This document shows positions 5,893 through 30,373 of a DNA stretch of 30,373 nucleotides, in pieces. This stretch comes from a virus: UHGV virus genome UHGV-0127428; one strand, 5' to 3'. The notes beneath the pieces are model-generated. The model made no database searches. It saw only the letters and a list, made by a program, of their open reading frames with translations, and was not told the origin of the DNA. Position numbers and translations under genes: made by a program. Numbering within the stretch: position 1 is the first letter of the stretch; every line of letters begins with the position of its first letter.

Positions 5893-5925
5893 CTTATTGA
5901 TTTAAATGGTGCCGATAATAGGAGT
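5893..5925. repeat. att core copy 1 (short): cttattgattt-aaa-tggtgccgataataggagt
   Basis: Its 19 nt tggtgccgataataggagt equal the reverse complement of the 3' end of tRNA-Thr (ACTCCTATTATCGGCACCA). Similarity to the tRNA stops after ggagt, where element B sequence begins. Same flank motif as copies at 18458 and 30324. Confidence 0.7.
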
Positions 5926-6067
5926 AAAACACTCGATTAATCTCGTGTTAATGCCATCACCTACGACCATTACTAATTGATTGAATCTTATAGAAAAATC
6001 ATCATTTTCTATGCGTCACAATCAATTTTCACATTACAAACGCTCCGACACTTTAGCCGGAGATTTT

Positions 6068-7345
6068 ATGAGATACAAGCCTAACCAATACTTAATCTGT
6101 GATTCTTACGGTAACTACTATTTAAGGATCACGCTGCCTGTGTATATGCAGCCCTTTTTTGAAGGAAAAAGGACGTTTGTCAGAAGTCTACACACAAGTA
6201 ATCTTCGTGTTGCACGTAGAAAGCGTGATCAGATTGCAGATGAATACCATTGCTTACGGGAGAGTGTTGCCCCTGTAAACAGCACAATAGAAAACACGCT
6301 GGAACTGTTACGCAGTAAGGCTAAATACGCCAAAACAGCTACCAGAGTGCAAGATACAGCGTCTTCGTGTCCGTCATTGCTTAAAATTCTTGAAATCTAC
6401 CTGACAATTAACAGCACGAAGAAGAAGCCAGCCACTTTAGCTAAGGCAAGAAAAGCGGTAGAGATGTTTCTCTCCTACCGTAAAAAGCCTGATATTGCAT
6501 TGCAAGATGTAAGCCGCACCACTGTTACAGGCTGGATTGAACACATGCAAAAAACTCTTTCACAACAATCAATTGCAAATTATATCAGTCCAATGGCCCA
6601 GCTATGGGAATTAGCTTCATCACGTTACCACGATGCGCCAGAAAGGGCGCTCTCCCCCTGGCGAGGGCATAGGCTTGATGTGGCACAAAGTAGAGAGAGC
6701 TACGAGGCATTTTCTAACAAAGAGCTATTGCAGGTGTTGCAAGTATTTTCCGGTAATTCAGCAGAAAACAAAGAAATGACGGCTTTGTGTCTTATCGGTT
6801 TATATACAGGTATGCGGATCAATGAGATAGCAAGTCTCACAATAGACGATGTGAAAGAGATCGAAGGTGTGCTGTGTTTTGAAATCACACAGGGAAAAAC
6901 GAAAGCTGCGGCACGTCTTGTGCCTGTGCATAGCCTTATCACTCCATTGGTGTTATCTCTTCGTGAAAAGCCTCACAATGGCTTTTTGTTCTATCACGCC
7001 AGCATTACAGAACGTGCTGACGGTAAACGCTCTACGTGGCATACACAACGATTTACAAGAGCTAAACGAAAGGCTTTAGGGGAAAAGGGAACAGAAAGGA
7101 AAGTGTTTCATTCTCTGAGACACGGAGTAGCACAGCTTCTTGATCGAAATCAAATTCCAGAGGACCGCATAGCTTTAATGTTGGGCCATCAGCGCGGCAA
7201 TACAGAAACATTCCGCACATATAGCAAGAATGCAGCTTCTCCAGTAGAGCTTAAAAAATATATTGAGCTTTTACGCTACCCTGAAATAGAGAAAGGCTTA
7301 TCAATCAATAAAAAATCAAATTTAAGGCGTAAAACAACGCTATAG
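6068..7345 (+). CDS. tyrosine recombinase/integrase of element B, distinct from the P22-type integrases
   Basis: Catalytic signature present: GMRINEIASL (Arg), HSLRHGVAQL (HxxR), GHQRGNTETFRTYSK (Tyr). Start chosen at the ATG at 6068 with ggag 6 nt upstream; the tool's TTG start at 5981 is less likely. Lies immediately inside the left boundary of element B. Confidence 0.75.
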   Translation: MRYKPNQYLICDSYGNYYLRITLPVYMQPFFEGKRTFVRSLHTSNLRVARRKRDQIADEYHCLRESVAPVNSTIENTLELLRSKAKYAKTATRVQDTASSCPSLLKILEIYLTINSTKKKPATLAKARKAVEMFLSYRKKPDIALQDVSRTTVTGWIEHMQKTLSQQSIANYISPMAQLWELASSRYHDAPERALSPWRGHRLDVAQSRESYEAFSNKELLQVLQVFSGNSAENKEMTALCLIGLYTGMRINEIASLTIDDVKEIEGVLCFEITQGKTKAAARLVPVHSLITPLVLSLREKPHNGFLFYHASITERADGKRSTWHTQRFTRAKRKALGEKGTERKVFHSLRHGVAQLLDRNQIPEDRIALMLGHQRGNTETFRTYSKNAASPVELKKYIELLRYPEIEKGLSINKKSNLRRKTTL

Positions 7346-7352
7346 ACGTAAT

Positions 7353-7386
7353 AAAGAGGCTTCAATATAGACTGATGCCTCTTTTA
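7353..7386. terminator. bidirectional terminator hairpin between convergent genes
   Basis: Stem agaggc / gcctct (7355-7360 and 7377-7382) with a T-run after it; lies between the end of the integrase (+) and the end of the 219-aa gene (-). Confidence 0.45.
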
Positions 7387-7425
7387 TGATTATCTCGTTA
7401 CAGAGCGTTTCATAGGCGTTTAAGG

Positions 7426-8085
7426 CTATTGTTTAAATACTGGCGTTACAACGTCTTGCCCTGGGCTTTTTGTATTTACCTGCATTTTAATCTGTCCCCC
7501 TACAGATTTATTTGGTGCTGTTTTTACCGCAATTGCGCTTGTAGTTGCTTTAGAGACAAGACGGATTTGCTCAAAATCAAGAGTAAACAATAGGCTTTCG
7601 CTTGCTTCTTCTTCATAAGACATGCCAACTAACACAACGTTGTCATAATTTTTTAACTCAGTGACAAGTAGGAAAGGTTGGCGACTGTCCATCAACTGAT
7701 TTAGGTATTCAAGCATAAGCATACGTCGATTGCCGTTAATTCCCGCATTCTTAATCATATCGGGATTGAGCTTCAATACGGTTTCAGAGATACGCCCCTG
7801 TAATGTGAACTTGTTATTCCGTATTTGAACATGATCACTAACTTCTGATCCTGATTCGACGGCATAGCTTGTAACGTCTGCATTTCGGCTAACTTTCGTC
7901 GATTCCACGCTATCAAATGATAATGCCTGGTAGTCATTGTAAGCAGCATTTGCACCACTGCCGAGGTTAGAGGTAATGATCGCAAAGCCGTTACCCCCTT
8001 TAGTTGTTCTACCGTTGCTATCGTTGCTTGTGCTGTTGATTTTCGCCTCAGTCGGGCGACCAATGGTTAACGGACCCATTGCCAT
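7426..8085 (-). CDS. hypothetical protein (219 aa), last gene of the capsid-like operon
   Basis: Good RBS (aagga) upstream of the ATG at 8085; Gly/Asn/Ser-rich N-terminus; no recognisable motif. Confidence 0.5.
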   Translation of the reverse strand: MAMGPLTIGRPTEAKINSTSNDSNGRTTKGGNGFAIITSNLGSGANAAYNDYQALSFDSVESTKVSRNADVTSYAVESGSEVSDHVQIRNNKFTLQGRISETVLKLNPDMIKNAGINGNRRMLMLEYLNQLMDSRQPFLLVTELKNYDNVVLVGMSYEEEASESLLFTLDFEQIRLVSKATTSAIAVKTAPNKSVGGQIKMQVNTKSPGQDVVTPVFKQ

Positions 8086-8132
8086 AATTTGTAATCCTTA
8101 TTTAAGGGGGCTAAACTGCCCCACAGTGATGA

Positions 8133-9974
8133 TTAATAGGTTGACCCGCCTGACATAACACCCAGCGTTAATAGCTTGCTAAACTCAGCGGAGGATGCCT
8201 TTGATTTGAAGTCGATAAATTCGCTCAATCGTCCGGTGTCTGATTCGATAGTTAGCGGCACTTCTGCATTTACTTGTAATTCTGGATTGAAGTTAATAAC
8301 AGGTGCAAAGGTGTAAGAAGGAGCCTTGAAAGCTTGTTGTGCTGCACTCTGTTTCAGATTTGCAATGTTTTGTCCTTCGAGACTGTATTGATTTACAGCC
8401 TGCGCCCCACCTACCGTTTCTTCTGGCATAAACCAGCTTTTAATAGTGTTAACCAGGGAATTGCTGTTATCTGGCTTAGTTGTTCCGGTGCCAGCGCCTT
8501 TATATTGATCAGGAGTGAGATTAGAAAGATTCTGCTTCATTCCTTCGTTAGATAGTGGCGGTGCATCCCCTAAATTCTTTTGAATAGCTGCCGTCTTCTC
8601 GTCGTTTTTCATCAGCCAGTTGATTGCTTTCATTACAGCGTTAACCAATCCGCCGATAGCCTCGCCTAATTTGGTAAACATTGGCAGCATTGCAACCATG
8701 CTCTTTTTAAACTCTTCAATCACTTTCGGATCAAGAGATTTCATAAAGCCATCAACAAAGGCGATCCCTTGTGAGTCAGAAAGCCCACTAAGTGCATTAT
8801 TCAGTTCACGGAATTTAATAACGCTTTCCTGTTGTGCCTGCGTTACCCAGCGCCCTGATTCTCGTTGTTCTCGTGCTGATTGTTCCACTTCTTTAGCGGA
8901 GCGTGTCCAGTATTTAGAGGTGAGCATCAAATCATCAGCCAGATCTTCCAGACGACTACCGATTTGTGCATCTGAATAGCCTTTAGCTACCATTCCCTGA
9001 ACTGCTTTACTAACCAGACCAGCCGGATTATCAGCAAAGTCTTTTAGATCCTTTTTAGTTAAGAATCCTTCATTCATTAAAGTATTGATGCCGCTATCGC
9101 CGCCCTTCCATTCTCCTTTACCTGTTTTTTTATCGACTACATATTCAGCCTCATCATAGCTTTTGGTTGCACGCTCACGCACATCTTTCATCTGATCGAG
9201 ATACTTACGTTTACCTTGATCCCCCATCATTGAATCAACGCCGTTTTTGTAGGCCCATTGCTCAATATTGTTCATCTGGTTAACGTCTACACCGCCCAGC
9301 TTCGCACGGCTATACAATTCTCCCAGCGTTTCAGCACTGGCAAAGCTGTTAGTAACAAATTCAGAGGCTTTGCTCATAGCCATATATGCAGCGCCAGCGC
9401 CTAAGCCACCCAGCATAACAGCCGCAGCACCGCCGCCAATACTCCCGCTACCCTTAACAGGTGCATAGGCTTTAGCGTGAGCGTTACGATTGCCATTAAT
9501 CTTACGTTGTTGCTGTTGTAGGCGTTTCATTTGGCTATTCATACGTGCCAGACTAATAGCGCCTCTTTCATATTGGAGGGCAATTTCTCTAGCCTGTGCA
9601 ATAGCTTTATATTGTTCCGCTACAGAAAGACGGTGCATTGCACTAATGCTTGATCCAACGTCTAAAAGCTTTAATTCTGCCTTCTCTTTGCGTGCTGCCA
9701 GGGCTTTTTGTTCTCTTGCAACTACACGTTGAGCGGCTAATTGTGCTTTAGCATTAGCTTTATCAGCCTGTGCTTGCTTTTTAGCAATATCGTCTACGTC
9801 TTTTTTTGCTTTAGCGGTTGATTGTTTATGTGTCTTAACACGCAATTCTATATCTTTCACAGCCGCCATTTGTTTACGAAGTTTTTCTACTTCTGCTTTT
9901 GCTTTCTCTAATGATGGTCGGTTAACTTCGAAGGTGACAACGTTCGAGAGGCGTGCCACGTTTAGCTCTAACAT
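8133..9974 (-). CDS. tape-measure-like protein (613 aa; coiled-coil N-terminus plus Gly-rich hydrophobic segment)
   Basis: N-terminal Lys/Ala/Gln/Glu-rich predicted coiled coil (KLRKQMAAVKDIELRVK...AKAQLAAQRVVAREQ) followed by GSGSIGGGAAAVMLGGLGAGAAYMA. This architecture is typical of phage tape-measure or internal virion proteins; assignment is by composition only. Confidence 0.4.
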   Translation of the reverse strand: MLELNVARLSNVVTFEVNRPSLEKAKAEVEKLRKQMAAVKDIELRVKTHKQSTAKAKKDVDDIAKKQAQADKANAKAQLAAQRVVAREQKALAARKEKAELKLLDVGSSISAMHRLSVAEQYKAIAQAREIALQYERGAISLARMNSQMKRLQQQQRKINGNRNAHAKAYAPVKGSGSIGGGAAAVMLGGLGAGAAYMAMSKASEFVTNSFASAETLGELYSRAKLGGVDVNQMNNIEQWAYKNGVDSMMGDQGKRKYLDQMKDVRERATKSYDEAEYVVDKKTGKGEWKGGDSGINTLMNEGFLTKKDLKDFADNPAGLVSKAVQGMVAKGYSDAQIGSRLEDLADDLMLTSKYWTRSAKEVEQSAREQRESGRWVTQAQQESVIKFRELNNALSGLSDSQGIAFVDGFMKSLDPKVIEEFKKSMVAMLPMFTKLGEAIGGLVNAVMKAINWLMKNDEKTAAIQKNLGDAPPLSNEGMKQNLSNLTPDQYKGAGTGTTKPDNSNSLVNTIKSWFMPEETVGGAQAVNQYSLEGQNIANLKQSAAQQAFKAPSYTFAPVINFNPELQVNAEVPLTIESDTGRLSEFIDFKSKASSAEFSKLLTLGVMSGGSTY

Positions 9975-10008
9975 GTTAATTGTTTCCCTGTATTATGATT
10001 GTTGTTTG

Positions 10009-10206
10009 TTATTGTTTTTTAGAACAATAATATTGGATTGCTTCGAAAGTGCTGCACCCAGTCTGAAAGACACGCTGGCGCACATTATTTGCATCAATTT
10101 CTAAAAGGCGGCAAAGCGCCGATGTGTTTATAACTGATTCCTCGCTAATAGCTGCCAGTTCTTTTACAGATTTAAGAATTAATGCCTGTGAATTTTCTGT
10201 ATTCAT
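10009..10206 (-). CDS. small hypothetical protein (65 aa from the ATG at 10206)
   Basis: Internal ATG with gagag RBS; the longer 91-aa frame starts in a hydrophobic, unlikely leader. Confidence 0.3.
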   Translation of the reverse strand: MNTENSQALILKSVKELAAISEESVINTSALCRLLEIDANNVRQRVFQTGCSTFEAIQYYCSKKQ

Positions 10207-10360
10207 TGGTTTTCTCTCACATATATATATTTTTATTTGGGTTTGTAGACAGTAGAAAAACAAAAAGGGCAAGAGACAGCGCATATTTTGCTTATATGAT
10301 TATCCCTTACCCTTATTGCCCCGATTATTTCCAGACGTAGGGGAACGTCTTTAACACTTT

Positions 10361-11389
10361 TTACGCTACTGTGATCTGCACAGAGAAGCCAACACCGTGG
10401 TTAACCACAAGCGAGCTATTCTCGGTCACTACGTGCACTGCGTCGCCGCGATTCGATTCGAAAGCATAGCTGTAATACTCTTTAGCGCCTTGAGACAGCA
10501 GATCGAAGGAACTGGAAGGCGCGCCATAGATAGCTTGGTAAACACCTCCACCCTTAGCGAATTTAGGCACGGCTACAGCGTCAGCGGTCATATGTGCCAG
10601 CAGCAGCGGATCAGTCACTTTGATCAGATCAATGTTAGTTCCTGGAATGGTGAAAGTAGTTACGCCAGGCAGCAGAGAACGCACATTAAACACCACGTTT
10701 GCATCGTCTACAGGGCTTGCATATTGGAACGCATTGACCATGCCAACGCTGTAACGAATAGCGTTGAATGCCGCAGGTTTACAGAACACAACAACACGCT
10801 CAATGGTTGCAGCCTGGCTTTGTGCCTTAGCAATCATATCCGTATGCATCTGATCAAATTGCTTGAATACGGTCATTGTGTTGGTGCTGGATGCGTCAAC
10901 GGTTGCAGTCATTGGAGACACACCGAACAGAGTGCTGTAATCGATCAGAACATCGTCAGTTTTCGGGGTATGTGTCTTGCCAGAGAACAGAGAAGCCGCG
11001 AGGATGCTTTCTTTAGTGCGCTGGAATGCAACATTGTGTTTAGCGATATATTCCGCATACAGATCCGGCAGTGTTTCTTCAATAGAGCTTCCGGCTTTGC
11101 GTTTGCCTTGCACGTCCTGCGGTTTGATCAGGTCTTCACGCAGGAAGTAAGGGATTTCAATCAGCCATTCTTCCCCGTTCTCACGCTTAGTAACGTTATG
11201 CTCAGAGCTAAAACGGCTTGTAGGATGGTTGAACAGAGATTCATTGCTCTCGATAAGCTGGGAAACAGCCACTTTGTGACTTTCTACAGGCACAGGATCA
11301 GTAAAATCCAGAGTAGACAGTAGGTAATTGCGTGAGTCGTTTAATTCGAACAGTGGAGCAAGATCAACCACTTCATTTCCGATAATCAT
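10361..11389 (-). CDS. candidate major capsid protein (lambda gpE-like family)
   Basis: 342 aa, similar in size to lambda E (about 341 aa). The C-terminal ...GFSVQITVA resembles the recalled lambda E C-terminus ...FVSVQLA. It is directly preceded by a small decoration-sized gene, as D precedes E in lambda. Strong RBS. Family assignment is tentative. Confidence 0.45.
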   Translation of the reverse strand: MIIGNEVVDLAPLFELNDSRNYLLSTLDFTDPVPVESHKVAVSQLIESNESLFNHPTSRFSSEHNVTKRENGEEWLIEIPYFLREDLIKPQDVQGKRKAGSSIEETLPDLYAEYIAKHNVAFQRTKESILAASLFSGKTHTPKTDDVLIDYSTLFGVSPMTATVDASSTNTMTVFKQFDQMHTDMIAKAQSQAATIERVVVFCKPAAFNAIRYSVGMVNAFQYASPVDDANVVFNVRSLLPGVTTFTIPGTNIDLIKVTDPLLLAHMTADAVAVPKFAKGGGVYQAIYGAPSSSFDLLSQGAKEYYSYAFESNRGDAVHVVTENSSLVVNHGVGFSVQITVA

Positions 11390-11405
11390 TATTATTTATT
11401 CCTTC

Positions 11406-11780
11406 TTAAGATGTGAAAACAGAGTGGAAGCCTTCAAGCTGGAAGCCTTTAGCAGCGAGAGCTGCAATAGCAGCTTCTTTTACAGCGCCTTCGGCATTCA
11501 GGGCATCAGCTTTGATGCAAACGAGTCCGGCATTAGCACGAAGCACGTTAACTGTTTTATTTGAATCAGCAGTTACGAAGTCAGACACAACGACAAGAAC
11601 ATCAGCGCCGCTAACATATTTAGCGCCGGATGAATCAATGAGGTCGCCGCACGTTACATCTTGTGCAAGTGCTGCAAATTTTTTGCTTTCTACAGCCGCG
11701 TAAGGGTCGGTTGCATAGCTCACTACGTCAGTGATGCTTTTACGATGTGGGAAAACATCGCTTAATTTTAAAATAGCCAT
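11406..11780 (-). CDS. candidate head decoration-like protein (124 aa)
   Basis: Size and position immediately upstream of the capsid-like gene; Ala/Val/Gly-rich beta-type composition; aagga RBS. No direct motif evidence. Confidence 0.35.
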   Translation of the reverse strand: MAILKLSDVFPHRKSITDVVSYATDPYAAVESKKFAALAQDVTCGDLIDSSGAKYVSGADVLVVVSDFVTADSNKTVNVLRANAGLVCIKADALNAEGAVKEAAIAALAAKGFQLEGFHSVFTS

Positions 11781-11989
11781 TATTTTTCCTTAGATTGTTT
11801 GATTTGTTGAGCTTTAGCATTAATCAAATCTTGGTGAGATGGTTTATTGCTTTCAGCCTTATAAAGACGTTCACACTGTTTCTTTAATTCTGTGGGAGTG
11901 ATGCCAAGCGCGTAGGCTGTAGCATTCAACACATCTTCAGTTAGTGTTAACTTTTCATTGCCATATTTCAGGATAATTTCTTGTTTCAT
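11780..11989 (-). CDS. small hypothetical protein (69 aa), first gene of the capsid-like operon
   Basis: ORF whose stop overlaps the start of the next gene; lysine-rich and helical in composition. Confidence 0.35.
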   Translation of the reverse strand: MKQEIILKYGNEKLTLTEDVLNATAYALGITPTELKKQCERLYKAESNKPSHQDLINAKAQQIKQSKEK

Positions 11990-12983
11990 TTATATAACGA
12001 TTCCATTATGTTGGAATTTAATAAATCCCCCAGGCTATAAGAGGTTCAATCTGACAATAGCGAGGGGGATTTATTAACGTGTCGGGCAATACACAGCGAT
12101 AAGTAAAACCTTGAGGAGGTTTTAAACGTATCTCTAAGAATGCTTATTAAACATGCTTAAAGATAGGTTTAAAGGGTGAACAGATATTCCTGAAAACATG
12201 CTCTTAGGAAAACATGCGGAATCAATCAGGAATATCTATTCGGGGCGCGGTGGCTAACCGCTATCTTTCATGGTGTGGATGCACCAGTCAGATTTTAAGG
12301 AATCACTATTCCAATCTACTCACAGATTAAATTTTTAATAATGATTAACTACACCAACAGTAATCTACCGTTTCAGAAAATCGTTTTTACAACCAAAGCT
12401 TATAGATCCGCATTCTATAAAACCCGTTTTGCTATCAATATTTCCAAAGTTTATTGCACCATTCTTAGCTAAACTCTCTCTACTTGCGGCTAACGCTATG
12501 CAGATGATAGTTTTTTGACAACAACTTAATAGATTATTCTGTTACTAACTTCTGTCATTAAATAAGAGTTTAATGATGTTAGTAAATAGTTATAAAATAT
12601 AACTATCAGTGTAAGGCTCTTTAATGTTTTCGGACAAAATAAGGAGCTTTAGGATAAGCATAGATGAAAAATAAGAGCGGGAAGGGCAAGGAGATAACAC
12701 CTACCCGCTTTTATCAAAAATTAAGCACAATGCCTAACAACATTTATCAACACAACGTAGAAACAATCAACAATCAAAGAGGGAGTTATGATTATTCTAA
12801 AACTTCTTGAGGGGATGGAAGGTAATATTTGTTAGAGGTTAATGCCATTCAACCTTTGAGGCTATCACCTTCCATATGCAGGGATTTATGACAGGAAAAG
12901 GATTAACACCAGTCAAAACCTTTTTATCTACCCCTAATATTATTATATAATGAAATCGTTATAAATGCAAATGATTTTTATTA

Positions 12984-13292
12984 TCATTTAGAGAAAATAG
13001 CACTTTTTGCTAAATCATCTACTAATTGCTGAATCTCTTCACTTGCAGCCTTTAACGTGCTGGCGGTGTCTGTGATGGTTTGAGTGCACATCTTGGCATT
13101 GTCCTCAATTAGCTCTAAATCTCTCACCAGAGAGATAAAATCGTCAAGGCTTACATTCACCTTCATTAAGCTAATAACGCATTGAGAGAGCGTGTAATCG
13201 CATAAATCTGAATAGGCTTGATTTATTCTTGTTTGTAGTGAGATAGTCAGATCTAAAAGTTGTTCCATTGCATTGCTAATATCTTCTTCCAT
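12984..13292 (-). CDS. hypothetical acidic protein (102 aa)
   Basis: aaggag RBS; start overlaps the stop of the upstream gene (taATG); no recognisable family. Confidence 0.45.
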   Translation of the reverse strand: MEEDISNAMEQLLDLTISLQTRINQAYSDLCDYTLSQCVISLMKVNVSLDDFISLVRDLELIEDNAKMCTQTITDTASTLKAASEEIQQLVDDLAKSAIFSK

Positions 13293-13495: not shown

Positions 13496-13552
13496 TATTT
13501 TTCCTTTTTTGAATATTTTCATTGGGCGCTTATACATACGCCCATCATTTTA

Positions 13553-13933: not shown

Positions 13934-14116
13934 TTTCCCTCTTTTTATGTGGATTATAAAAACTTAATGTCATTGTTACGATGAATATCGCCATAAATGC
14001 ATTTGCCATATGTATTGCCCGATCTGTTGTTATTGATTGTTTGTGATAAACAATTCAAAATCTTTGTTTAATTTCAAAAGACGAAATGTAGTGCTGTTAT
14101 AAGCCATTTATTCTCC

Positions 14117-20983: not shown

Positions 20984-23377
20984 TCAACCATTTGGTATTG
21001 ACTTTAATAATCTTTCCAGATAATTAATCCTTGATGTGATATTAGCAATATTCTGCTCATGGTTATGATATAGTGCGCTCATTGCCAGAAACATTAACTC
21101 GTCATAGCGCACTGATAATTTCCTTCCTGATTCTACAAGTAACCTTATTTCACCCGTTTCATACTCTTCTTCCTCTGTGATTTCATCATGCTGGCCCGAT
21201 TCTTCATCAATCAAAATTTTTCTGGTTACATTTCTTGTTGCATAGACTTTCTCGTACTCGTCATCCCACTCTTCATAGCAAAGAACTCCATAAGAAAATG
21301 CATCAAGCCCTTCAGATTCAAAGATGGATTGTATATCTTGCGCAATTACACCGATATGCTCACGCGCTGATAAGCCTTTTTCTTTTACAGCATCCTTCAT
21401 TCTGAATTTTTTTATCAGCGGGTAAATAGCCATTCCAACCCGTAGTTCTGCATCAGATAATGAAGTTTCATCCTGCTTGTAATTTCTGTCGCTGGTTACG
21501 ATGGGACTATTATTGATATACAGGTTTCTGACAGTATTCGACTGTGTACCAATATCATAAAGATTTGAACCTGATGGTCGAAAATGACCTAATTCTGTTA
21601 ATACCCATCTGTCACGCAAGCCGTCACTCTCTCCCATGGTTCCAAAGTAGAAAGCAACCGGGATATTGTCTCCGGAAGGATTACCTCTTGTGACGCATTT
21701 AATGCGTGCGCATTGCACAGCCTTACTACCTGTATCACCAGCCCATACATGAGTACCCAATACATCCCCTGTCTGCAGAGCTCCAAAATTATCAGTTGAT
21801 ACAACACCAGAGCGAGACTTATACATTATTGCTCTTGGTCCTTCTGCGGTGTCTGACTGATGCCGGGAAACCCATGAGTTGCTCATCCCTTCCGTGCCGT
21901 TTGAAGCTAACTGCATTCCACCAGTAATTCCGCCATCAAGAAACAATATAGGGTTATCCCGGTTAGTTTGAATACCCTTTCTTGTTGGCCAAACTGTCCA
22001 GTGAAAAGTATCATTGTACTCCCTTACTCCATATTTGAACTCCGGGGAGCCAGAACTATGAAGACCAGTATTACTGGATACAGAACGGCTTGCTTTGCTT
22101 TGCACTACCGAACCAGACCTGCCTATATCAAACAGATATACATTTTTCCCGTTCTCAGCAACTCCTTTATATGTGCATATCCCCAGCGTTAAAACATACC
22201 CACTCTCCGTTCTAATTACTGTTAGGGACTCAGGCTCTTTATAAACAGGAGTTCCTGTACTGTCAGATTTTGCTTCATCATCACCAACAGTTGAAATATC
22301 TACTCGCTCAATAAACCTGCCTGTTAAGTCAAATACGTAAATATAATTAGTCATGCCAACATACGTATGTGACTCAAGTATGTAAATGTATGCCCCATCG
22401 CAAGCAATTGATTGGGTAAATGCTTCTTGTGATGGTTTTTGATAGCTAAACTCAACTAAATAATCATCACTATAATCAGTTTTATGAGCTCTGTTATTCC
22501 ACATGCTGACTATGTCGAAAACACGAACCGTGCAGGTAATTCCATCCGATGAAATTTTCTTGGCAAGTAGATAGTTTTCACAACTTGATACAGTTGGAGT
22601 AGAGCTTGCGCTCATTCCATCATAGGGGAACAACTTCCAGGTGATAAAACCTTCAGATACTCCGTTGGTTGTCCCTGTGTAACTCAATATATTTTCCATC
22701 GAAATACATTGATTGGCGGCATCGGTTCCATAAGGCTTCGATGTCCACAGCACGACAGTACCATCAGGATTATGATGCAATCCAAGCCCCTGATGCCCAA
22801 GTTCAGTAGAACGGGTTCTGTCGTATCTTCCTAGTTCACCAGAATTCGTCACGTCAAAGGCATTAATGCAATAACCGTATGCTGTGGTAGATGATAAAGT
22901 AAAAATCTTGTCGTTAATTTCATCATAACAACACCCCTGAATGACCGCATATAACCCCCCCGCACCTTCAGTTCTGCGCAACGTGTGTCTGGTGTTATAT
23001 ACTTTTGGCATTCCGGAAAATATCAATGGCTCTCTTTTATCTCTTAATTTAAGATCACCAATCGCAATTCGTTTACTGCCATCACGAATAAAAGAACCAT
23101 TTATATAGCTATTTTCAATAAAACTTTTAGTAACAAAAAATGCTCTTCCACTTAAATCAATAACCCTATTTTTTATATCCATTTCCAACGCGACAAATGC
23201 TTCAGTATCATCGCTAATCCCATCCCCCTTAGCTCCAAAATAAAGAGGAGACATATTTAGCATATCATTTGATAATACTTTTTGTTTAAACTGATCCGGG
23301 TCATACTTCAGCACATTAGGAAAATAGAACTGCTGCGCACCGTACGCATCATAAACAGCCATAGAATGGCCTTGCAC
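20984..23377 (-). CDS. tailspike/tail-fibre protein, 5'-truncated: end of a P22-type head-binding domain, beta-helix domain, C-terminal intramolecular chaperone (S74-like) domain
   Basis: N-terminus [29 protein letters not shown] matches the end of the P22 tailspike head-binding domain, then a pectate-lyase-like motif [14 protein letters not shown]. The C-terminal region (SDAELRV...[10 protein letters not shown]...) matches the S74 chaperone pattern. P22-like sequence continues upstream of the GTG start to a stop at 23429-23431. Confidence 0.65.
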
Positions 23378-23460
23378 AGTTACGAATTTGGCAATCTGTC
23401 CGTTATATACCGGGTATCGTTGAATTCGTTAAACAGCAAGAGCAGTTATTCTGCGGAGCA

Positions 23461-24318
23461 TTGACTGAACAGACGGTGACATGGGCTAAGGAAAGCCAGT
23501 TTGCAATTCAGTATTTCCAGAAAAATGATTACCTGGCTAAAACAGCACTGGCAAATCCAACCAGCGCACAGAACGCCATCATCAATGTTGCGGCGATCGG
23601 TATCACCTTAAACCCGGCTAGCAAACTGGCTTATCTGGTTCCGCGCGACGGCATGGTGTGCCTTGATATCAGTTATATGGGATTGCTCCATATTGCAATG
23701 GAGTCTGGTGTTATCTCATGGGGTCAGGCAAAACTTGTTCATGCTAACGATACCTATGAGTCAAACGGGCTTGATAAAGCACCAACCCATAAATACAACG
23801 CCTTCGGTGATCGTGGTGATATTGTTGGCGTTTACTGCACAGTTAAGACGCCAGCAGGTGATTATCTAACGGAAGAGATGAGTCTGGCTGAAATTGAGGC
23901 TGTAAGGAAAACAAGCAAGGCAGCATTCAGCGATAAAGGACCATGGGTAAATCACTGGAATGAGATGGCGCGAAAGACGGTCGTAAAGCGTGCAAGCAAG
24001 TATTGGCCTAAGGCATCACGTCTTGATAGTGCTATTCACGTACTAAACGAAGAAGAAGGTGTGTGGACTGAACCAGTTATGCCGCACAAATCAGAGGAAG
24101 ATATCCGCGAAGATGAACGGAAACGACAGCAGGAAATTATGGAAAAAGCACAACTTCTTTGTGATGAAATGGCTCAGGCTGAAAACATGGATGATTTGAA
24201 GCGATATTTTGCAGAAGCATATCGCCTGACATCTGGAATGAAATTGCAGCAGAACGTACAAGCCATTTACATAGAATGCAAAGCGAAACTGGAGGTTGCC
24301 AGTGAGCAAACTGTATGA
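23461..24318 (+). CDS. recT: RecT-family single-strand annealing recombinase
   Basis: GPWVNHWNEMARKTVVKRASKYWP resembles the conserved RecT motif (GPWVTHWEEMAKKTAIRRLFKYLP in Rac RecT as recalled). TTG start with ggag 7 nt upstream. Confidence 0.75.
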   Translation: MTEQTVTWAKESQFAIQYFQKNDYLAKTALANPTSAQNAIINVAAIGITLNPASKLAYLVPRDGMVCLDISYMGLLHIAMESGVISWGQAKLVHANDTYESNGLDKAPTHKYNAFGDRGDIVGVYCTVKTPAGDYLTEEMSLAEIEAVRKTSKAAFSDKGPWVNHWNEMARKTVVKRASKYWPKASRLDSAIHVLNEEEGVWTEPVMPHKSEEDIREDERKRQQEIMEKAQLLCDEMAQAENMDDLKRYFAEAYRLTSGMKLQQNVQAIYIECKAKLEVASEQTV

Positions 24319-24784
24319 AATTGCCAATGAATACGCAAAATTGATGGATTCAGATTTAGAACCAGAGATGATTGCTGACACAATAGAAGGCATGGAAGGA
24401 GAATTTACCGATAAAATAGAGCAACTTCTTTCCGTCATTAAAAATGAATCTGGTTATGCTGAACGCCTCAAGGAAGAGGCAAAGTCACTGAATGAGCGAG
24501 CCGCAGTAATTCAAAATAAGATTGACAGCATCAAATCATATATAGCGTCATCGCTTGAAATGGTTGGCAAGAAAAATATTCGAGCAGGTATTCACCAGGT
24601 AACAATCCGCAAACCGTCAGAAATTGTAGAAATCATCGACTCAAGCGCCCTTCCTCCTGAATACGTTGAGTTCGAAACGACAATTAAAGCCGACAAACTG
24701 GCAATCAAACACCAACTAAAAGAAGGAATAAATATCCCCGGTGCTCAACTCAAAGTTGGGAAACCTTCACTTCTTATCAAATAA
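24302..24784 (+). CDS. Gp157-like protein (siphovirus Gp157 family), commonly next to phage recombinases
   Basis: About 160 aa, helical, immediately downstream of recT; GTG at 24302 with a ggagg SD. Family assignment is from memory of the general pattern. Confidence 0.45.
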   Translation: MSKLYEIANEYAKLMDSDLEPEMIADTIEGMEGEFTDKIEQLLSVIKNESGYAERLKEEAKSLNERAAVIQNKIDSIKSYIASSLEMVGKKNIRAGIHQVTIRKPSEIVEIIDSSALPPEYVEFETTIKADKLAIKHQLKEGINIPGAQLKVGKPSLLIK

Positions 24785-24795
24785 CGGTATCGCCT

Positions 24796-25110
24796 ATGAA
24801 AAAGACTCCATGGGAGAAATGGGAAGTCGATTTCTTGCGCGAAGTAGCGGCGACAATGCCAGTTGAAGTTATCGCTGAAAAACTGGAAAGGACTGAAAAA
24901 GCAGTTATGGCGAAAGCAACAAGGATTGGCGCTGACATTGTTAGCCGACTTCGTGGAAGACGCTGGACAAGAGCTGAAGTATCACTTTTCGGTAAGTTCT
25001 CCGCAGAAGAAATAGCAATTGCAACCTGCCGCTCAATTTATTCAGTAAGAGCTATGCGATACAAGCTAAAAAAACTTGATGAAGAAAGAGCAGGCATACG
25101 AATAAATTAA
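24796..25110 (+). CDS. hypothetical protein with an internal tandem duplication of a ~40-aa W-containing helical motif
   Basis: Two similar halves ([32 protein letters not shown]... and [31 protein letters not shown]...), suggesting a duplicated HTH-like unit. Confidence 0.45.
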
Positions 25111-25126
25111 CAAAGAGGAATTTACC

Positions 25127-25291
25127 ATGAGAGGACTTGCATACAATCCCGGCATTCTTCCGGCAGAAATGATTATTCGCCAACGCGTAAAGCCAATGCC
25201 ATCGAGAGAGGAATTGCTTAAAAGAAATTCTTTTCCATCAGTGAATCAAAACAAATATCTGAATGCGATGTGGCGGAGTGGGAAGAAATGA
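25127..25291 (+). CDS. small hypothetical ORF (54 aa)
   Basis: ATG with aagagga SD; stop overlaps the start of the next gene (ATGA); no homology recognised. Confidence 0.25.
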
Positions 25292-25830
25292 AACAAATGT
25301 CACTAATTGAGATGGATGGTTTTCTGAAAGGTAAATGCATCCCACGAGATTTAAAGGTTAACGAAACAAACGCTGAATATCTGGTGCGTAAATTTGCTGA
25401 AGCGGAGGCCAAGATTTCAGCTCTGTCCGAGGACCAACAGAAAGCGATTGAGTCAATTAAGCAGGCTGATGCAGCTGTTAAGTTGGCACACGAGAAGTTT
25501 TCGGCGCTGGCGGCGGAGAATGCGGGGCTGAAACACGCAATGGCCGTAACTCTTGAGCATGTGTCGGTCACGGATGCAGGGCAGGCCGGAGTTGCTGCAA
25601 TGATTATCAACGATGCCCTGCACCACAGCGAAAACCCAGCCACCGATGCTTTCATGGCTGAAGTACGGGCCAGCGAACTTGATAGCTTGGCTGGCTTGGC
25701 TGAAACAATGTTGGTCAAATTCTCCAATCAGCAGTGCTCATCTGATATGCATGAGGTTGTTGGCTGGAAGATGGTTCTCCAGCAGGCCAATAATCGCGCC
25801 GCCCAGCTTCGCAAAGGAGGCAACCAGTGA
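25288..25830 (+). CDS. protein with a YfdS-like N-terminal domain and a divergent Ala-rich C-terminus
   Basis: [36 protein letters not shown] parallels [35 protein letters not shown] of the yfdS-like gene at 3835; the rest is unrelated. Confidence 0.5.
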
Positions 25831-26513
25831 GCGAAATTAATTACCAGGCACTGCGTGAGGCGGCGGAACGTGCAATTCCAGCAATGGAACGCCTGTTAAT
25901 GTTGCCAGCTGATGATGATTTGTTAAGTGAACAGGAACTTAAAGATTATGGTGTGGATATTGATGCGCTCAACGCCTTCAAATTTCTGGACGGACCAGAA
26001 ACCGTGCTGGCACTACTGGATGAACTGGAAAGAAACCAGCAATACATCAAAAGCCGTGATCATGAGAACGAGGATATTGCGCTAACGGTAGGGAAGCTGC
26101 GCGTTGAGCTGGAAGGCAAAGACAGCAAAATAGCCAATCTTACCGCCGAACGCGATGCTCTTCGTGAAGGTGAGATGGGCGACGCTAGGCATAGCAACAC
26201 ACGGGCCGCAGCTGATATCTACTTCCAACTGGTCGAGGAGTGCGAAATTCCTGCTGGCGGATCTCTGGTCGAGTACGTTGACGATATGCGCGAGAAGCTG
26301 GAAGCCGCAGAGAAGCGCATTGCAGAGTTAGAAAGTGGTTCTCAGGCACAAAAGTTAGTTGAAGCAATCATTGTTGCGATAGAAAACGAACAGGAAAGGC
26401 TTTTTGATGAAGATTACCTAATGGATTCGAAAGAATGCATTGACGTAATTCGTGAAGAAGTAAAGCGATGGAATGATTCCCGTGCCGCTGGCATTCGCAT
26501 CAAAGGAGAGTGA
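25827..26513 (+). CDS. Ea22-like coiled-coil early protein candidate
   Basis: GTG start with aaggagg SD overlapping the upstream stop; acidic, predicted coiled-coil protein in the early-left operon. Confidence 0.35.
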   Translation: MSEINYQALREAAERAIPAMERLLMLPADDDLLSEQELKDYGVDIDALNAFKFLDGPETVLALLDELERNQQYIKSRDHENEDIALTVGKLRVELEGKDSKIANLTAERDALREGEMGDARHSNTRAAADIYFQLVEECEIPAGGSLVEYVDDMREKLEAAEKRIAELESGSQAQKLVEAIIVAIENEQERLFDEDYLMDSKECIDVIREEVKRWNDSRAAGIRIKGE

Positions 26514-26514
26514 G

Positions 26515-27270
26515 ATGATTCACTATCACGGTGGGCCTATTACTCCGGATACGTGCGCCATGAGAGCATGGAAAGGGCGACATGCGTTTATCAGTTTTGC
26601 GCATTCAGGCCAGATCAATCTCGCGGCTGAATACTGTCAGTCGTTCGCGCTGGACAACGGTGCATTCACCGCCTGGAAAGCAGCTGGCAAAAACAAAATC
26701 GACTGGAGCGATTACTACGAGTTTGTTGCTCGCTGGAAGAATCACCCAGGATTCGATTTTGCCATTATCCCGGATGTTATTGATGGCGGAGAGGAGAAAA
26801 ATGATGCGCTTCTGAATGAGTGGCCTCACGGAAAACTAGCTGGCGTTCCAGTGTGGCACATGAATGAAAGTGACGAGCGATTTATTCATTTGTGCAATCA
26901 GTTTCCGCGAGTGGCTATCGGTAGTTGTGGCGACTATGACGTAAAGCGCCCAACTCTTGCGGTAGCCAGAATGAAAGACCTGATTCGTCACATTGTTGAT
27001 GAGTATGGTCAGCCGGTTACGAAACTACATGGATTGCGCATGTTAAATCCGCAGATATTCACAAAATTACCCTTAGCCAGCGCAGATAGTACGAACGTCG
27101 CTCGAAACATCGGTATTGATAAAACCTGGTCTGGGGCTTATGCACCTGCAAGTAAAGAGACACGCGCAGCATTAATGGTAGAACGGATTGAGGCACACAA
27201 TAGCCCTGGTTCTCTTGCGTATTGTGAACAACGCGACCGCTTTGAAATGCAATTGCAACTAGCAGTTTAA
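26515..27270 (+). CDS. TGT-superfamily (DpdA-like DNA/tRNA-guanine transglycosylase-like) protein candidate
   Basis: Start at the ATG at 26515 with aaaggagag SD. The spacing H-x6-P (HGLRMLNP) ... D (ASADS) ... ARN-x-G (NVARNIG) parallels the TGT segment HLFGVGRP...DMFDCV...PTRNARNG as I recall it; FALDNGAF resembles the DSGGFQ substrate motif. No zinc-binding CxCxxC motif. Confidence 0.4.
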   Translation: MIHYHGGPITPDTCAMRAWKGRHAFISFAHSGQINLAAEYCQSFALDNGAFTAWKAAGKNKIDWSDYYEFVARWKNHPGFDFAIIPDVIDGGEEKNDALLNEWPHGKLAGVPVWHMNESDERFIHLCNQFPRVAIGSCGDYDVKRPTLAVARMKDLIRHIVDEYGQPVTKLHGLRMLNPQIFTKLPLASADSTNVARNIGIDKTWSGAYAPASKETRAALMVERIEAHNSPGSLAYCEQRDRFEMQLQLAV

Positions 27271-27280
27271 GGACTAACAA

Positions 27281-28132
27281 ATGACCACTATTACCAAAGA
27301 ACGTATTGAATTGTTCATTAAAAATCCGCTTGAAAACGGGCTTACTCGTGGCGAACAAATGGAACTGGCACGAATTGCACTGGCATCACTGGGAGCCGAG
27401 CCTGTTCTGTATCAGTCCTGCACTCGCCCCACCTGGAATAGCGGTGTTCCGTGGACGGAATGGAAAGAACGAAGTCGTGAGTGCTACGAAGACGATTTGC
27501 GCTTTACAGACACGCCTGACCATGCCGGTTGGATATACAAATGTCGAAAACTATATACCACTCCGCCAGCGCCGATAGCGTTAGAGGCCATTGAAAACGC
27601 AATTGAATACATCCGCAGTATCGCTTTTCACATCGATGAAGACGATTACCACGGCAAACATATTGCGTATTTCATGCAGCAAGCATTGGCCTGGCTGGAA
27701 GGGCATTCATGCAGCGACGACAGACAGGGCAAAGCCGAGAATCAACCAGTACGCGGCAACCAGGCTGCCGAATCCAATCGCGGTAATGAGTGGACTGGCA
27801 ATCCTGATATTGATAACGCCATCATCATGCTCGACCGCATAGATACGCTGGAAAATTGCGATGATGACCGTATTGAAGCTGTTAAGGCTGTTTTGCGTAG
27901 ACTGGCTGGCAACTATCCGGTAACTCCGGATGGTTGGATAAGCTGTAGTGATCGAATGCCGGAAGACACCAAAATGTTACTGGCATTTAGTCAAGGTGAA
28001 ATCGTGGCCGTATATTGGAACTGGGTTGTAAATCCAATTGATTACAAAAAATATAGAGCTTTCACGTATTTATCAGGAAATATCTTGGATGACGTAACTC
28101 ACTGGATACCGCTACCAGAGCCTCCACTTTGA
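27281..28132 (+). CDS. DUF551-domain protein
   Basis: The C-terminal ...VTHWIPLPEPPL matches the W-x-PLPEPP ending typical of DUF551 prophage proteins. Confidence 0.55.
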   Translation: MTTITKERIELFIKNPLENGLTRGEQMELARIALASLGAEPVLYQSCTRPTWNSGVPWTEWKERSRECYEDDLRFTDTPDHAGWIYKCRKLYTTPPAPIALEAIENAIEYIRSIAFHIDEDDYHGKHIAYFMQQALAWLEGHSCSDDRQGKAENQPVRGNQAAESNRGNEWTGNPDIDNAIIMLDRIDTLENCDDDRIEAVKAVLRRLAGNYPVTPDGWISCSDRMPEDTKMLLAFSQGEIVAVYWNWVVNPIDYKKYRAFTYLSGNILDDVTHWIPLPEPPL

Positions 28133-28228
28133 AAGCGAAGCTTATACATATCTTTTACATCAGCAATCTATTGTTAATCTCCAATCAATGTTACGTTGTC
28201 ATCTCACTCATGCTTTGGAGGTAGTGAT

Positions 28229-28408
28229 ATGTCTTGTCCAAAATGCGGTTCTGGAAATATTGCAAAAGAAAAAACAATGCGTGGATGGTCTGGTGATTAT
28301 GTGTGCTGCGATTGCGGATACAACGACTCTAAAGACGCATTTGGAGAGCGTGGTAAAAACGAGTTTGTCAAAATTAATAAAGAACGCGAAGGCAACGAAA
28401 AAAGCTAA
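28229..28408 (+). CDS. small zinc-ribbon protein (59 aa)
   Basis: MSCPKCGSG...CCDCGYND carries two CxxC pairs; ggagg SD 7 nt upstream of the ATG. Confidence 0.4.
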   Translation: MSCPKCGSGNIAKEKTMRGWSGDYVCCDCGYNDSKDAFGERGKNEFVKINKEREGNEKS

Positions 28409-28469
28409 TTTATTTATTCATATATGAAAACAATGTAACCAATATTCGATTTGAAGAACTGAAAGAACA

Positions 28470-28497
28470 CCAAGCCGCCTGATGGCGGTTTTTTATT
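28470..28497 (+). terminator. rho-independent terminator-like hairpin
   Basis: gccgcc tgat ggcggt stem followed by tttttatt. Confidence 0.45.
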
Positions 28498-28508
28498 GGA
28501 GACAAGAA

Positions 28509-28853
28509 ATGTCAGATTTGGCTATGAAGGTTTTGAAATGGCAATCGACTGGCGATGTCGGCATCAGTAGCGCAACTCTTGCCTCAATCGCATGTGGCCT
28601 GAAAAAGAATATCTATGGTCATCACTTCGGCGCTCCACATGATGCAGCCGATTTCCGGCGATGCGTTGCACTTGTTGAGCAGATTCCAGAAATCAGAGAT
28701 TCATTCGACAAGGTTGCAAAGCGCGTTCCGGCATTCAAAGGCATCCTCAACGAATGGGATTCGCTCGTTGCTCTGTTGAAGTCTGAAATGAAGATACACG
28801 AAAACAAAGCACCAGAGACTTACAGAAGAATTAGCGAGCTACGCAAGGACTAA
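28509..28853 (+). CDS. hypothetical protein (114 aa)
   Basis: ATG with ggag SD just after the terminator; the tool's longer alternative start lies inside the hairpin. Confidence 0.45.
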   Translation: MSDLAMKVLKWQSTGDVGISSATLASIACGLKKNIYGHHFGAPHDAADFRRCVALVEQIPEIRDSFDKVAKRVPAFKGILNEWDSLVALLKSEMKIHENKAPETYRRISELRKD

Positions 28854-28925
28854 CGCCTCACACTCGATGAGGCCTGTTCATTTCTCAAGATATCCAGACC
28901 TACCGCAATAATACCAACTCAATAA
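28854..28925 (+). pseudogene. remnant of the 5' end of a P22-type xis (no start codon)
   Basis: 28856-28903 is near-identical to 4516-4563 of the element A xis (cctcacactcgatgaggcctgt...ctcaagatatccagacc). It encodes [18 protein letters not shown] then diverges to a stop at 28923-28925. Confidence 0.55.
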
Positions 28926-28938
28926 ATGGAGATTCCAA

Positions 28939-29286
28939 GTGGAAGAAGAAATCTTCACTCGTGAAGAGGCAGCATCGTATCTGAAGGTAGACAAAGGCAC
29001 TATCACGCAGTGGATACGAAGTGGACGACTTCAGGCCGCAAAGATAAATCCAGATAAACCTAAAAGTCCATATCGCATTTGCAAGTCAGACTGCATTGCG
29101 GCGCTTAAGTCTGTGAGACACAATAGCGCGGTGAATGCGGTTGATGTGCAGGAGGTTAAAGCATGTCAATCAAACTACGCGGTGGCACGTGGCACTGTGA
29201 TTTCGTCGCGCCAGATGGATCAAGAGTTAGACGCTCTCTTGAAACATCGGACAAAAGGCAAGCGCAAGAACTTCACGATCGTCTGA
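28939..29286 (+). CDS. xis: excisionase (Xis), divergent paralogue of the element A Xis
   Basis: GTG start; TITQWIRSGRLQAAKINPDKPKSPY...CIAALKS parallels [25 protein letters not shown]...CIAALQS; overlaps the int start. Confidence 0.6.
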   Translation: MEEEIFTREEAASYLKVDKGTITQWIRSGRLQAAKINPDKPKSPYRICKSDCIAALKSVRHNSAVNAVDVQEVKACQSNYAVARGTVISSRQMDQELDALLKHRTKGKRKNFTIV

Positions 29287-30323
29287 AAGCAGAAGCGTGG
29301 AGAGTAAAAAATCTCGGGGAATCACCGAAAAAGCTATTCAAGGAAGCCTGCATACGGTGGCTGCGTGAGAAATCGGATAAGAAGTCCATTGATGATGACA
29401 AGAGCATTATATCGTTCTGGATGTTGCACTTCAGAGAAACCATTCTCTCTGACATAACAACAGAAAAAATAATGGAGGCGGTAGACGGGATGGAAAACCG
29501 CCGCCATCGCCTGAACTGGGAGATGAGCCGGGACAGGTGTTTGCGGCTTGGCAATCCAGTGCCGGAGTATAAACCAAAGCTGGCAAGTAAAGGAACGAAG
29601 ACGCGGCATCTGGCAATACTTCGCGCTATTCTCAATATGGCTGTTGAATGGGGATGGCTTGACAGGGCGCCCAAAATATCAACACCACGCGTTAAGAATG
29701 GACGAATCAGATGGCTTACAGAGGAGGAGTCGAAGCGCCTGTTTGCAGAAATTGCTCCTCATTTCTTCCCTGTGGTCATGTTTGCAATCACGACAGGCCT
29801 TCGCCGTTCCAACGTTACAGACCTTGAGTGGTCACAGGTCGATCTGGATAAGAAAATGGCATGGATGCACCCTGATGAAACAAAAGCTGGCAATGCGATC
29901 GGAGTTCCTCTTAACGAAACCGCATGCCAGATATTAAGAAAACAGCAGGGGCTCCATAAGAGATGGGTATTTGTCCACACCAAACCTGCCTACCGAAGCG
30001 ACGGAACAAAAACAGCAGCGGTAAGGAAGATGAGAACCGACAGCAACAAGGCATGGAAGGGAGCGTTAAAGCGGGCAGGCATTAGCAACTTCCGCTTCCA
30101 TGACCTGAGGCATACCTGGGCAAGCTGGCTGGTTCAGTCCGGTGTCTCTCTTCTTGCACTTAAAGAGATGGGAGGATGGGAAACTCTCGAAATGGTTCAA
30201 AGATACGCCCACCTTTCAGCCGGGCATCTCACCGAGCACGCGAGCAAAATCGATGCGATTATAAGTCGCAATGGCACAAATACGGCACAAGAGGAGAACG
30301 TAGTTTACTTAAATGTGAGGTAA
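29163..30323 (+). CDS. int: P22-family tyrosine integrase, second copy (diverged paralogue of the 4729-5892 integrase)
   Basis: 386 aa; [29 protein letters not shown]; stop lies 14 nt before the tRNA 3' end. Confidence 0.9.
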   Translation: MSIKLRGGTWHCDFVAPDGSRVRRSLETSDKRQAQELHDRLKAEAWRVKNLGESPKKLFKEACIRWLREKSDKKSIDDDKSIISFWMLHFRETILSDITTEKIMEAVDGMENRRHRLNWEMSRDRCLRLGNPVPEYKPKLASKGTKTRHLAILRAILNMAVEWGWLDRAPKISTPRVKNGRIRWLTEEESKRLFAEIAPHFFPVVMFAITTGLRRSNVTDLEWSQVDLDKKMAWMHPDETKAGNAIGVPLNETACQILRKQQGLHKRWVFVHTKPAYRSDGTKTAAVRKMRTDSNKAWKGALKRAGISNFRFHDLRHTWASWLVQSGVSLLALKEMGGWETLEMVQRYAHLSAGHLTEHASKIDAIISRNGTNTAQEENVVYLNVR

Positions 30324-30337
30324 CTTATTGATTTTAA

Positions 30338-30373
30338 TGGTGCCGATAATAGGAGTCGAACCTACGACCTTCG
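30338..30373 (-). tRNA. thrW: 3' portion of tRNA-Thr (thrW-type), cut by the window edge; att core copy 3
   Basis: The reverse complement of 30338-30373 equals the 3' 36 nt of tRNA-Thr(CGU) including the CCA end; preceded by the cttattgatttt flank. Whether the full gene continues beyond the window cannot be seen. Confidence 0.6.

Follow-up and report, generated by a model that had tools for sequence, protein, structure and literature searches.

How did three copies of the end of one tRNA gene come to lie within a single viral sequence, and what DNA do they delimit? The stretch in question, the 30,373-nt sequence UHGV-0127428 (hereafter 'the window', to the whole of which all coordinates of the array refer), carries three repeats of the 3' end of thrW, the gene for tRNA-Thr, which is among the most used tRNA genes in Escherichia coli and a recognised integration hot spot. 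An earlier note on this DNA had described three tandem integrase-bearing elements sharing one attachment site at this gene. We find that the window very probably holds three integrative elements, independent of one another and stacked in tandem on the 3' end of thrW, each with a different tyrosine integrase. These elements, here called A (1–5906), B (5926–18473) and C (18520–30337), are arranged head to tail beside a single thrW gene, and their number and independence are confirmed when the sequence is compared with phage attP sites and with complete E. coli genomes. The three copies are, however, not equivalent as attachment sites: the copy between A and B is best read as a junction of B, and the copy between B and C as composite.

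Results

Three unequal copies of the thrW end

The 19-mer TGGTGCCGATAATAGGAGT, the reverse complement of the thrW 3' end with the CCA included, occurs exactly three times in the window, on the plus strand at 5907, 18474 and 30338, the thrW reference being the reverse complement taken from locus L001, a complete E. coli genome. No further match was found in the window at up to two mismatches, and none is expected in shuffled sequence. Exact identity to thrW runs for 19 nt in copy 1, ending where B begins, for 46 nt in copy 2 and for 36 nt, up to the window edge, in copy 3, as the earlier note had it. Its core positions (5893–5925, 18458–18519 and 30324–30373) were likewise correct, and take in the 14–16 nt to the left of each copy, which are similar at all three (CTTATTGATTTAAA, GTTATTGATTTTCTTA and CTTATTGATTTTAA). 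Copy 1 (5893–5925, plus strand) thus consists of a 14-nt P22-type spacer (5893–5906) followed by the last 19 nt of thrW (5907–5925), copy 2 (18474–18519, plus strand) is a pseudo-tRNA fragment formed by a full thrW block (46/46 nt), and copy 3 (30338–30373, minus strand) is the last part of the thrW gene proper (36/36 nt), clipped by the window edge. Between copies 2 and 3 the exact repeat is at least 38 nt long. As thrW, on the minus strand, leaves the window at its right end and has only 36 nt inside it, ARAGORN reported no tRNA.

Three integrases

The integrase gene of A (int A, 4729–5892, plus strand) encodes a full-length P22/SfV-type tyrosine integrase of 387 aa that aligns with P22 Int along its whole length, gap-free and at 90% identity, and the DNA of the region is about 99% identical to the SfV/SfIV int region. 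That of C (int C, 29163–30323, plus strand) encodes a second P22-family integrase, of the mEp213/HK542 type (386 aa), 54% identical to P22 Int and 56% identical to Int A. Both genes stop (at 5892 and 30323) 14 nt short of the tRNA end, the spacer of C occupying 30324–30337, and the start of each is overlapped by an xis-like open reading frame (ORF) with an HTH_17 match (4418–4852, plus strand, in A; 28939–29286 in C). Both elements therefore show the P22-family pattern of an int gene ending 14 nt from the block with an overlapping xis, and the P22-type int genes that the earlier note had seen next to copies 1 and 3 are real. The integrase of B (int B, 6068–7345, plus strand) lies at the tRNA-distal end of its element and reads inward; it is a tyrosine recombinase with DUF6538, SAM-like and catalytic domains (Pfam), for which alignment was confined to the catalytic domain, with 22% identity to Int C and 24% to IntF of E. 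coli K-12. An assignment to the IntF/CP4-6 type was rejected on account of this low identity, limited to the catalytic domain.

Independence of the elements

The ends of A and C can each be read as one attP of a free phage. In the SfV genome the int stop, the 14-nt spacer and the 46-nt block are contiguous, whereas in the window the SfV-like string is broken after block position 19 and picks up again at 18493; joined to the last 27 nt of copy 2, the int-side arm of A with its 19 nt makes one continuous SfV attP. SfV accordingly matches the window in two pieces (1778...5925 and ...18519), because B interrupts the string after block position 19. The P' arm of A lies beyond the window. For C, the P' arm (18520–18610) and the far arm of the mEp213 attP are identical in sequence, and the int side corresponds to the near arm of that attP; the two ends of C are contiguous in the mEp213 attP and so derive from one attP.

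B carries its own tyrosine recombinase and has direct repeats at both ends (21 nt in the window, 20 nt in L001). In E. coli Z0117EC0054 it occurs at 99.7% identity directly beside an intact thrW with ATGGTGCCGATAATAGGAGT on both flanks, and it stands beside an intact thrW, again at 99.7%, in an avian pathogenic E. coli (APEC) strain of serotype O2:K1:H7; in both it lies between the vat toxin module and thrW. In GENOMIC23-002 (L005) B follows an A-type int and 19 nt, with thrW next, and in STK78-E (L006) it follows a fossil C-type int, with a complete P22-like prophage on the tRNA side. Its boundaries are identical across these contexts, with the vat island (L001), an A-type int (L005 and the window) or the C-type int fossil (L006) as left neighbour and intact thrW or a P22-like prophage as right neighbour. 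The shorter identity block that the earlier note had ascribed to B is borne out by these cases, in which the same boundaries recur with a 20-nt direct repeat beside intact thrW.

A P22-type core split at a proposed second crossover segment

For SfI, SfII, SfV, SfX and P22 the 46 bases of the block have been published as the attP core (PMC3636060). The attP core annotated in the GenBank record of P22 (21300–21322, 23 bp) falls on block positions 17–39, with CTACGAC at its centre. When a P22-type site is taken to be a 46-nt block identical to thrW, copy 2 is such a site and copy 3 agrees at all 36 visible nt, whilst copy 1, with 19 nt, is not. Copy 1 keeps 3 of the 23 annotated P22 core positions, and is therefore best read as a B junction rather than a P22-type site: it would combine the tRNA-distal junction of B with the int-side stump of A's attL, and would not be usable by a P22-type integrase. 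Copy 2 would be composite, its first 19–21 nt serving as the tRNA-proximal junction of B and the whole block doubling as the core of C's attR and, displaced, as that of A's attL.

As is established for tRNA-integrating elements, the attP of each carries the tRNA 3' segment from its own crossover point to the CCA end, and integration restores a working tRNA and displaces the earlier 3' fragment outward. Here, the P22-family integrases of A and C would use the 46-nt block and Int B would recombine within the last 19–21 nt of thrW. Since the identity block of B is only 19–21 nt long, its strand exchange would fall on the 3' side (in the tRNA sense) of the P22-type core. B would thereby split A's attL, placing the int-side arm of A 12.5 kb from its own core, and because arm and core lie so far apart A should not excise until B leaves. 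Excision of B would rebuild A's attL exactly, and C, which keeps both sites, xis and int, could still recombine copy 2 with copy 3. Read in this way, the locus offers a clean natural example of one tRNA gene used at two crossover segments in a single stack, and of prophage locking, in which an inner island should block excision of an older prophage until the island itself leaves.

Order of integration and rival explanations

Integration of A, then B, then C and integration of A, then C, then B give an identical final sequence, from which the order cannot be derived. We lean slightly towards A, B, C, each entering an intact tRNA gene, because intact tRNA is the canonical target and because the succession A-type int, 19 nt, B and thrW exists naturally. 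The other history, in which A and C first stood in tandem with a 46-nt core between them and B then entered this pseudo-tRNA fragment through its first 19–21 nt, is a serious if less probable candidate: it yields exactly the observed sequence, so that structure does not separate the two, and the fragment contains the entire identity block of B with 27 nt to the right. Stacks of mixed order do exist, as in metagenome contig L017 (1500–1545), where the tRNA-side 19-mer beside a divergent B is followed by AAAACGCAGC… instead of the tRNA body, which indicates that a second element with a 19-nt boundary is stacked there. Against such a history, in the examined cases with one other element B always stood beside an intact tRNA or a later P22-type prophage, no case was seen of B using a fragment whilst an intact thrW was available, and the natural intermediate predicted by A, B, C is at hand. 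Insertion of B between two P22-type prophages, as the earlier note proposed, is thus one possible history, but not the one that the sequence dictates.

Several observations weigh against the stack as such and against the recombination scheme drawn from it. Amongst 5426 complete E. coli genomes the whole three-element array was found in none, and no single place matched more than 51% of the 25-kb query (window 5374–30373); the remainder of thrW and the far end of A lie beyond the window; the crossover positions given above for all three integrases are predictions from sequence, that of P22 resting on its GenBank annotation; and the exact attP junction predicted for a circle of B, which contains GATTTTCTTAATGGTGCCGATAATAGGAGTAAAACACTCG, had no match amongst IMG/VR viral sequences or Joint Genome Institute (JGI) metagenome contigs, although its lack in public contigs does not show an inability to excise. 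The absence of the whole array, together with the exact repeat shared by copies 2 and 3, might be taken to mean that separate loci were chimerically joined through the repeated tRNA segment during assembly. We consider this very improbable: the A–B junction type is present in 6 of the complete genomes and the B–C junction type in 7 (and in 1 more at 80% coverage), each junction type being found at full length and 96–100% identity in several finished E. coli chromosomes; at the A–B junction the shared stretch is just 21 nt, not long enough to mislead an assembler; and all three elements target the single thrW locus and would be neighbours in any case. Less probable still is a single composite element, in which the 30 kb would move as a whole and the att-like repeats would be internal to it. 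In its favour, the parts adjoin one another and all three come from phages, but B occurs without A or C, A–B and B–C pairs are found separately in other genomes, A-type and C-type attP are contiguous in free phage genomes and the three integrases are unrelated or divergent, so that this explanation is already refuted in substance. The comparison with complete genomes for which the earlier note had called thus shows the array to be neither an artefact nor a single element, and the stack of three remains the reading that we adopt.

Elements A and C are deletion remnants

Element A, which extends past the left window edge and ends with the 14-nt spacer behind int A, is a lambdoid prophage remnant. 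Its tail genes, all on the minus strand, comprise an I'-'J fusion (50–442; Pfam Lambda_tail_I and Ig_GpJ_C), K (340–1092; Prok-JAB and NLPC_P60) and L (1089–1727; Phage_tail_L), followed on the plus strand by early-left genes from 1748 up to xis and int (DUF2303, YfbR-like, DUF551 and HTH_17). Its DNA is 95–99% identical to phages Kati, mEp460, SfV and SfIV, in separate pieces. Judged by gene content, A is a deletion remnant whose tail genes are lambda-like, not P22-like. Within window positions 50–1748, a 130-aa ORF is a fusion that starts with the N-terminus of lambda tail protein I and finishes with the C-terminal end of J, and the start of tail gene L directly abuts the opposite-strand early-left genes.

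Element C is an 11.8-kb deletion remnant of a P22-like prophage (Pfam), its DNA a mosaic of matches to phages Gally, mEp213 and HK542. It retains a family-2 (GT2) glycosyltransferase gene (19633–20937, plus strand), an N-terminally truncated tailspike gene (20984–23377, minus strand), recT (23461–24318) and genes with gp157, Ead/Ea22 and DUF551 matches; immunity, replication, lysis and head genes were absent from it in the Pfam search. The tailspike is without the first ~85 residues of the head-binding domain, only profile positions 86–113 of which were matched. Its ORF begins with GTG inside that domain and its start abuts recT, and C has evidently lost everything between recT and the tailspike (window 20984–23461). 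At the attR end (18752–20937), where P22 has gtrABC, C carries a 434-aa family-2 glycosyltransferase of low GC content (34%) and a 96-aa ORF; the glycosyltransferase is probably surface-modifying cargo that the remnant has kept. Part of the window from 18493 to 30373 matches nearly every complete E. coli genome, at a median of 4 places per genome, with a further 635 places on plasmids, and C must therefore hold a widely repeated phage or insertion sequence (IS)-related segment. Of the two P22-type prophages of the earlier note, then, the P22-family integrases stand, but both elements are deletion remnants and the tail of A is lambda-like.

Boundaries and arms of element B

Unlike A and C, which are decayed, B is an intact 12.5-kb integrative, phage-satellite-like element. 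B-like DNA was present in 762 of the 5426 complete E. coli genomes, about one in seven, and matches in IMG/VR were almost all provirus calls from isolate genomes. A scan of genome contigs for relatives outside Escherichia returned Escherichia loci and one contig of a metagenome-assembled genome labelled Bacillota (98% identity in the major capsid protein).

The left arm (5928–5977, plus strand) comprises a palindrome and a relic of thrW. The 9-mer CCTACGACC is found only at 5960, 18497 and 30361; the first of these (5960–5968), already pointed out in the earlier note, belongs to a longer gapped thrW relic (5959–5977) that corresponds to block positions 23–46 and reads ACCTACGAC, a 5-nt gap and CATTACTAAT, its end coinciding exactly with the end of the 46-nt block. 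The relic aligns with a score of 24, which 0.14% of shuffles and 0 of 777 real windows attained, and CTACGACC is invariant in four aligned B left arms, including that of L017, where the left arm has 64% DNA identity (blastn), the Int is 55% identical and the relic is fuller (CTACGACCTTCGCA). On the shuffle score and this conservation, chance was rejected as an origin of the 9-mer at 5960. The conserved imperfect palindrome AACACnnGATnnATCnnGTGTT (5928–5949) begins 2 nt inside the left end of B, with the 19-nt block on one side and the relic on the other; it lies upstream of int B and may be a binding site for a dimeric regulator or directionality factor.

The right arm (17717–18473, plus strand) is 98–99% conserved amongst B variants that are mosaic elsewhere, and its final letters, GTTATTGATTTTCTTA, resemble the P22-type spacer. 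A decayed P22-type int was considered here and rejected, tblastn detecting none in this arm; only ~20 nt beside the tRNA block resemble a P22-type spacer. Brought together, the arms look like a P22-type attP interrupted by an insert of ~34 nt, though Int B is unrelated to the P22 family. Amongst possible arm-type repeats for Int B the search gave only weak candidates, one of them being GCGTTTGTAA, which occurs in inverted orientation at −68 and +127 in the reconstructed attP.

Genes of element B

A structural block of five ORFs on the minus strand (7426–11780) follows int B. It encodes a tube-initiator or Dit-like protein (7426–8085, 219 aa; Pfam Dit_like), a tape-measure-like protein (8133–9974, 613 aa; PHROG tape measure), a small ORF (10009–10284), a major capsid protein (MCP; 10361–11389; Pfam Phage_cap_E) and a 124-aa ORF (11406–11780). 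Chains of phage phi92 in the PDB matched three of these proteins (gp135, tube initiator, 5e-54; gp134, tape measure, 1e-20; gp124, capsid, 4e-9), and the Phapecoctavirus phiWec188 has homologues in the same order, at 47% (Dit-like), 26% (tape measure) and 25% (MCP) identity. A tblastn search of the MCP and tape-measure-like protein of B against 50,697 phage records gave nothing closer, all matches being below 60% identity. Upstream of the structural operon lies a ~1-kb AT-rich stretch (11990–12983, 34% GC) with no convincing ORFs and no Rfam match, which is kept in close B variants and reduced to only ~340 nt in the STK78-E variant; throughout the window no known RNA family reached its gathering score.

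A replication and regulation region (14117–16092) holds the gene for a Rep-like winged-helix protein (14117–14710, minus strand; PHROG replication-initiator matches), two small ORFs (14740–15108) and five iteron-like repeats of ~23 nt, TAACAGnnTTCTGTnGGGGT (15950–16092), found by tandem and direct repeat searches. The repeats, a candidate replication origin, lie within a 1.5-kb stretch free of annotated genes, at a distance of 1.2 kb from the Rep-like gene. B also encodes small regulators and, in its variable part, a serine recombinase of the resolvase/invertase type (16607–17164, plus strand; Pfam Resolvase, 1e-38) that is present in some variants and absent from L005, L010 and L013.

Searches of B against Pfam and PHROG gave no portal, terminase or protease match and none for AlpA, a primase-Rep or Sid/Psu/Delta, and PADLOC found no defence genes in it. 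Only the Int, tape-measure-like and capsid proteins exceed 220 aa, and B has no room for a portal, terminase and protease.

Element B as a probably maintained family

The family was compared using window positions 5926–18473 and loci L001, L005, L006 and L009–L019. In eight copies the repeat-to-repeat length is 12,032–13,816 bp; gene order is kept even where identity falls to 59% (capsid), 34% (tape measure) and 34–55% (integrase); and the ends are 97–99% conserved around a mosaic interior. In the L005 variant (24568–26199) the Int, tube initiator and tape measure are 95–99% identical to those of the window, whilst the capsid gene and the adjacent 124-aa gene are without detectable similarity, which indicates a module swap. 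Conserved gene order, conserved ends with a mosaic interior and constant length argue for a functional, maintained element with a packaging-type size limit, and thus for a family that is maintained rather than a decaying prophage.

What might such an element be? Most likely B is a phage satellite, so far undescribed, of phi92-like lytic myoviruses; a literature search found no publication describing it. The constant size lends this indirect support, as do the phi92-like homologues (capsid, tape measure and tube initiator). The main alternative identity is a defence island that poisons phage assembly. A fuller picture, which we put forward tentatively and with less than even confidence in the whole, would join these points: B would be an undescribed Escherichia family of phage satellites (or assembly-poisoning defence islands) directed at large lytic myoviruses of the phi92/phAPEC8 type (Stephanstirmvirinae), supplying its own capsid, tape measure and tube initiator and taking portal, terminase and the rest from the helper, and it would split the P22-type core by inserting 19 nt into thrW, so locking an older P22-type prophage, while its arm keeps the central CTACGAC of that core.

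Discussion

The stack alone adds little to what is known, and B is the part of greatest potential value, given that roughly every seventh complete E. coli genome carries B-like DNA, which is also found beside the vat toxin island of extraintestinal pathogenic E. coli (ExPEC) and APEC strains. Should B prove to be a satellite or an anti-phage decoy, it would represent a PLE-like system of E. coli acting on phage types now used in therapy, with relevance to the host range of therapeutic phages and to gene transfer.

Tandem arrays of islands and prophages at tRNA and tmRNA genes are reportedly described in the work of Williams from 2002–2003 and in the Islander/TIGER surveys. As in such arrays, successive integrations in the window would regenerate the tRNA and leave nested 3' fragments; there is no difference in principle, the particular feature here being the two crossover segments of one tRNA. 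Stacks of this kind are the textbook result when a tRNA hot spot is used repeatedly, and the one described here is a further instance of a known phenomenon. Work by Parreira and Gyles from 2003 is also said to place the VAT-PAI of APEC next to thrW.

With P22 and the Shigella phages SfI, SfII, SfV and SfX, which integrate at thrW, the window shares the 46-bp core in copy 2 and, in A, the same 14-nt spacer between int and tRNA. It differs from them in that an SfV-type attL is split after position 19 by a 12.5-kb foreign element, and in that A is a deleted lambdoid remnant. The cryptic prophage CP4-6 of E. coli K-12 occupies the same locus and has the same displaced thrW fragment (the pseudo-tRNA ptwF) as its outer boundary, and the attP of mEp213/HK542, whose mEp213 version supplies the arms of C, is annotated as 'type CP4-6'; CP4-6 itself differs in having IntF as integrase and an identity block of at least 49 nt. 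The K-12 ptwF region (L008, 3200–3340, minus strand) and STK78-E (L006, 7500–7600) have in common, to the left of the thrW fragment, a fossil of ~75 nt from the 3' end of a C-type int with its spacer. This shared fossil looks like an old base layer at E. coli thrW, lying beneath CP4-6 in K-12 and beneath B in STK78-E.

For B the systems to compare are the phage satellites, namely phage-inducible chromosomal islands (PICIs), their capsid-forming relatives (cf-PICIs), P4 and the PICI-like elements (PLEs). The cf-PICIs have a full head module (small terminase, portal, protease, capsid and head–tail connectors), of which B has the capsid protein only; in place of the marker genes of PICIs and P4 it shows only the Rep-like winged-helix protein with iterons; and amongst the described satellite families none has its virion set of capsid, tape measure and tube initiator, its dependence on a helper being a prediction. 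In other respects B is like these satellites, with a small and constant size (12.0–13.8 kb), its own integrase, some virion genes, a Rep-like gene with iterons and a mosaic interior between conserved ends. It is like PLE with its phage ICP1, too, in that its structural homologues point to a large lytic myovirus.

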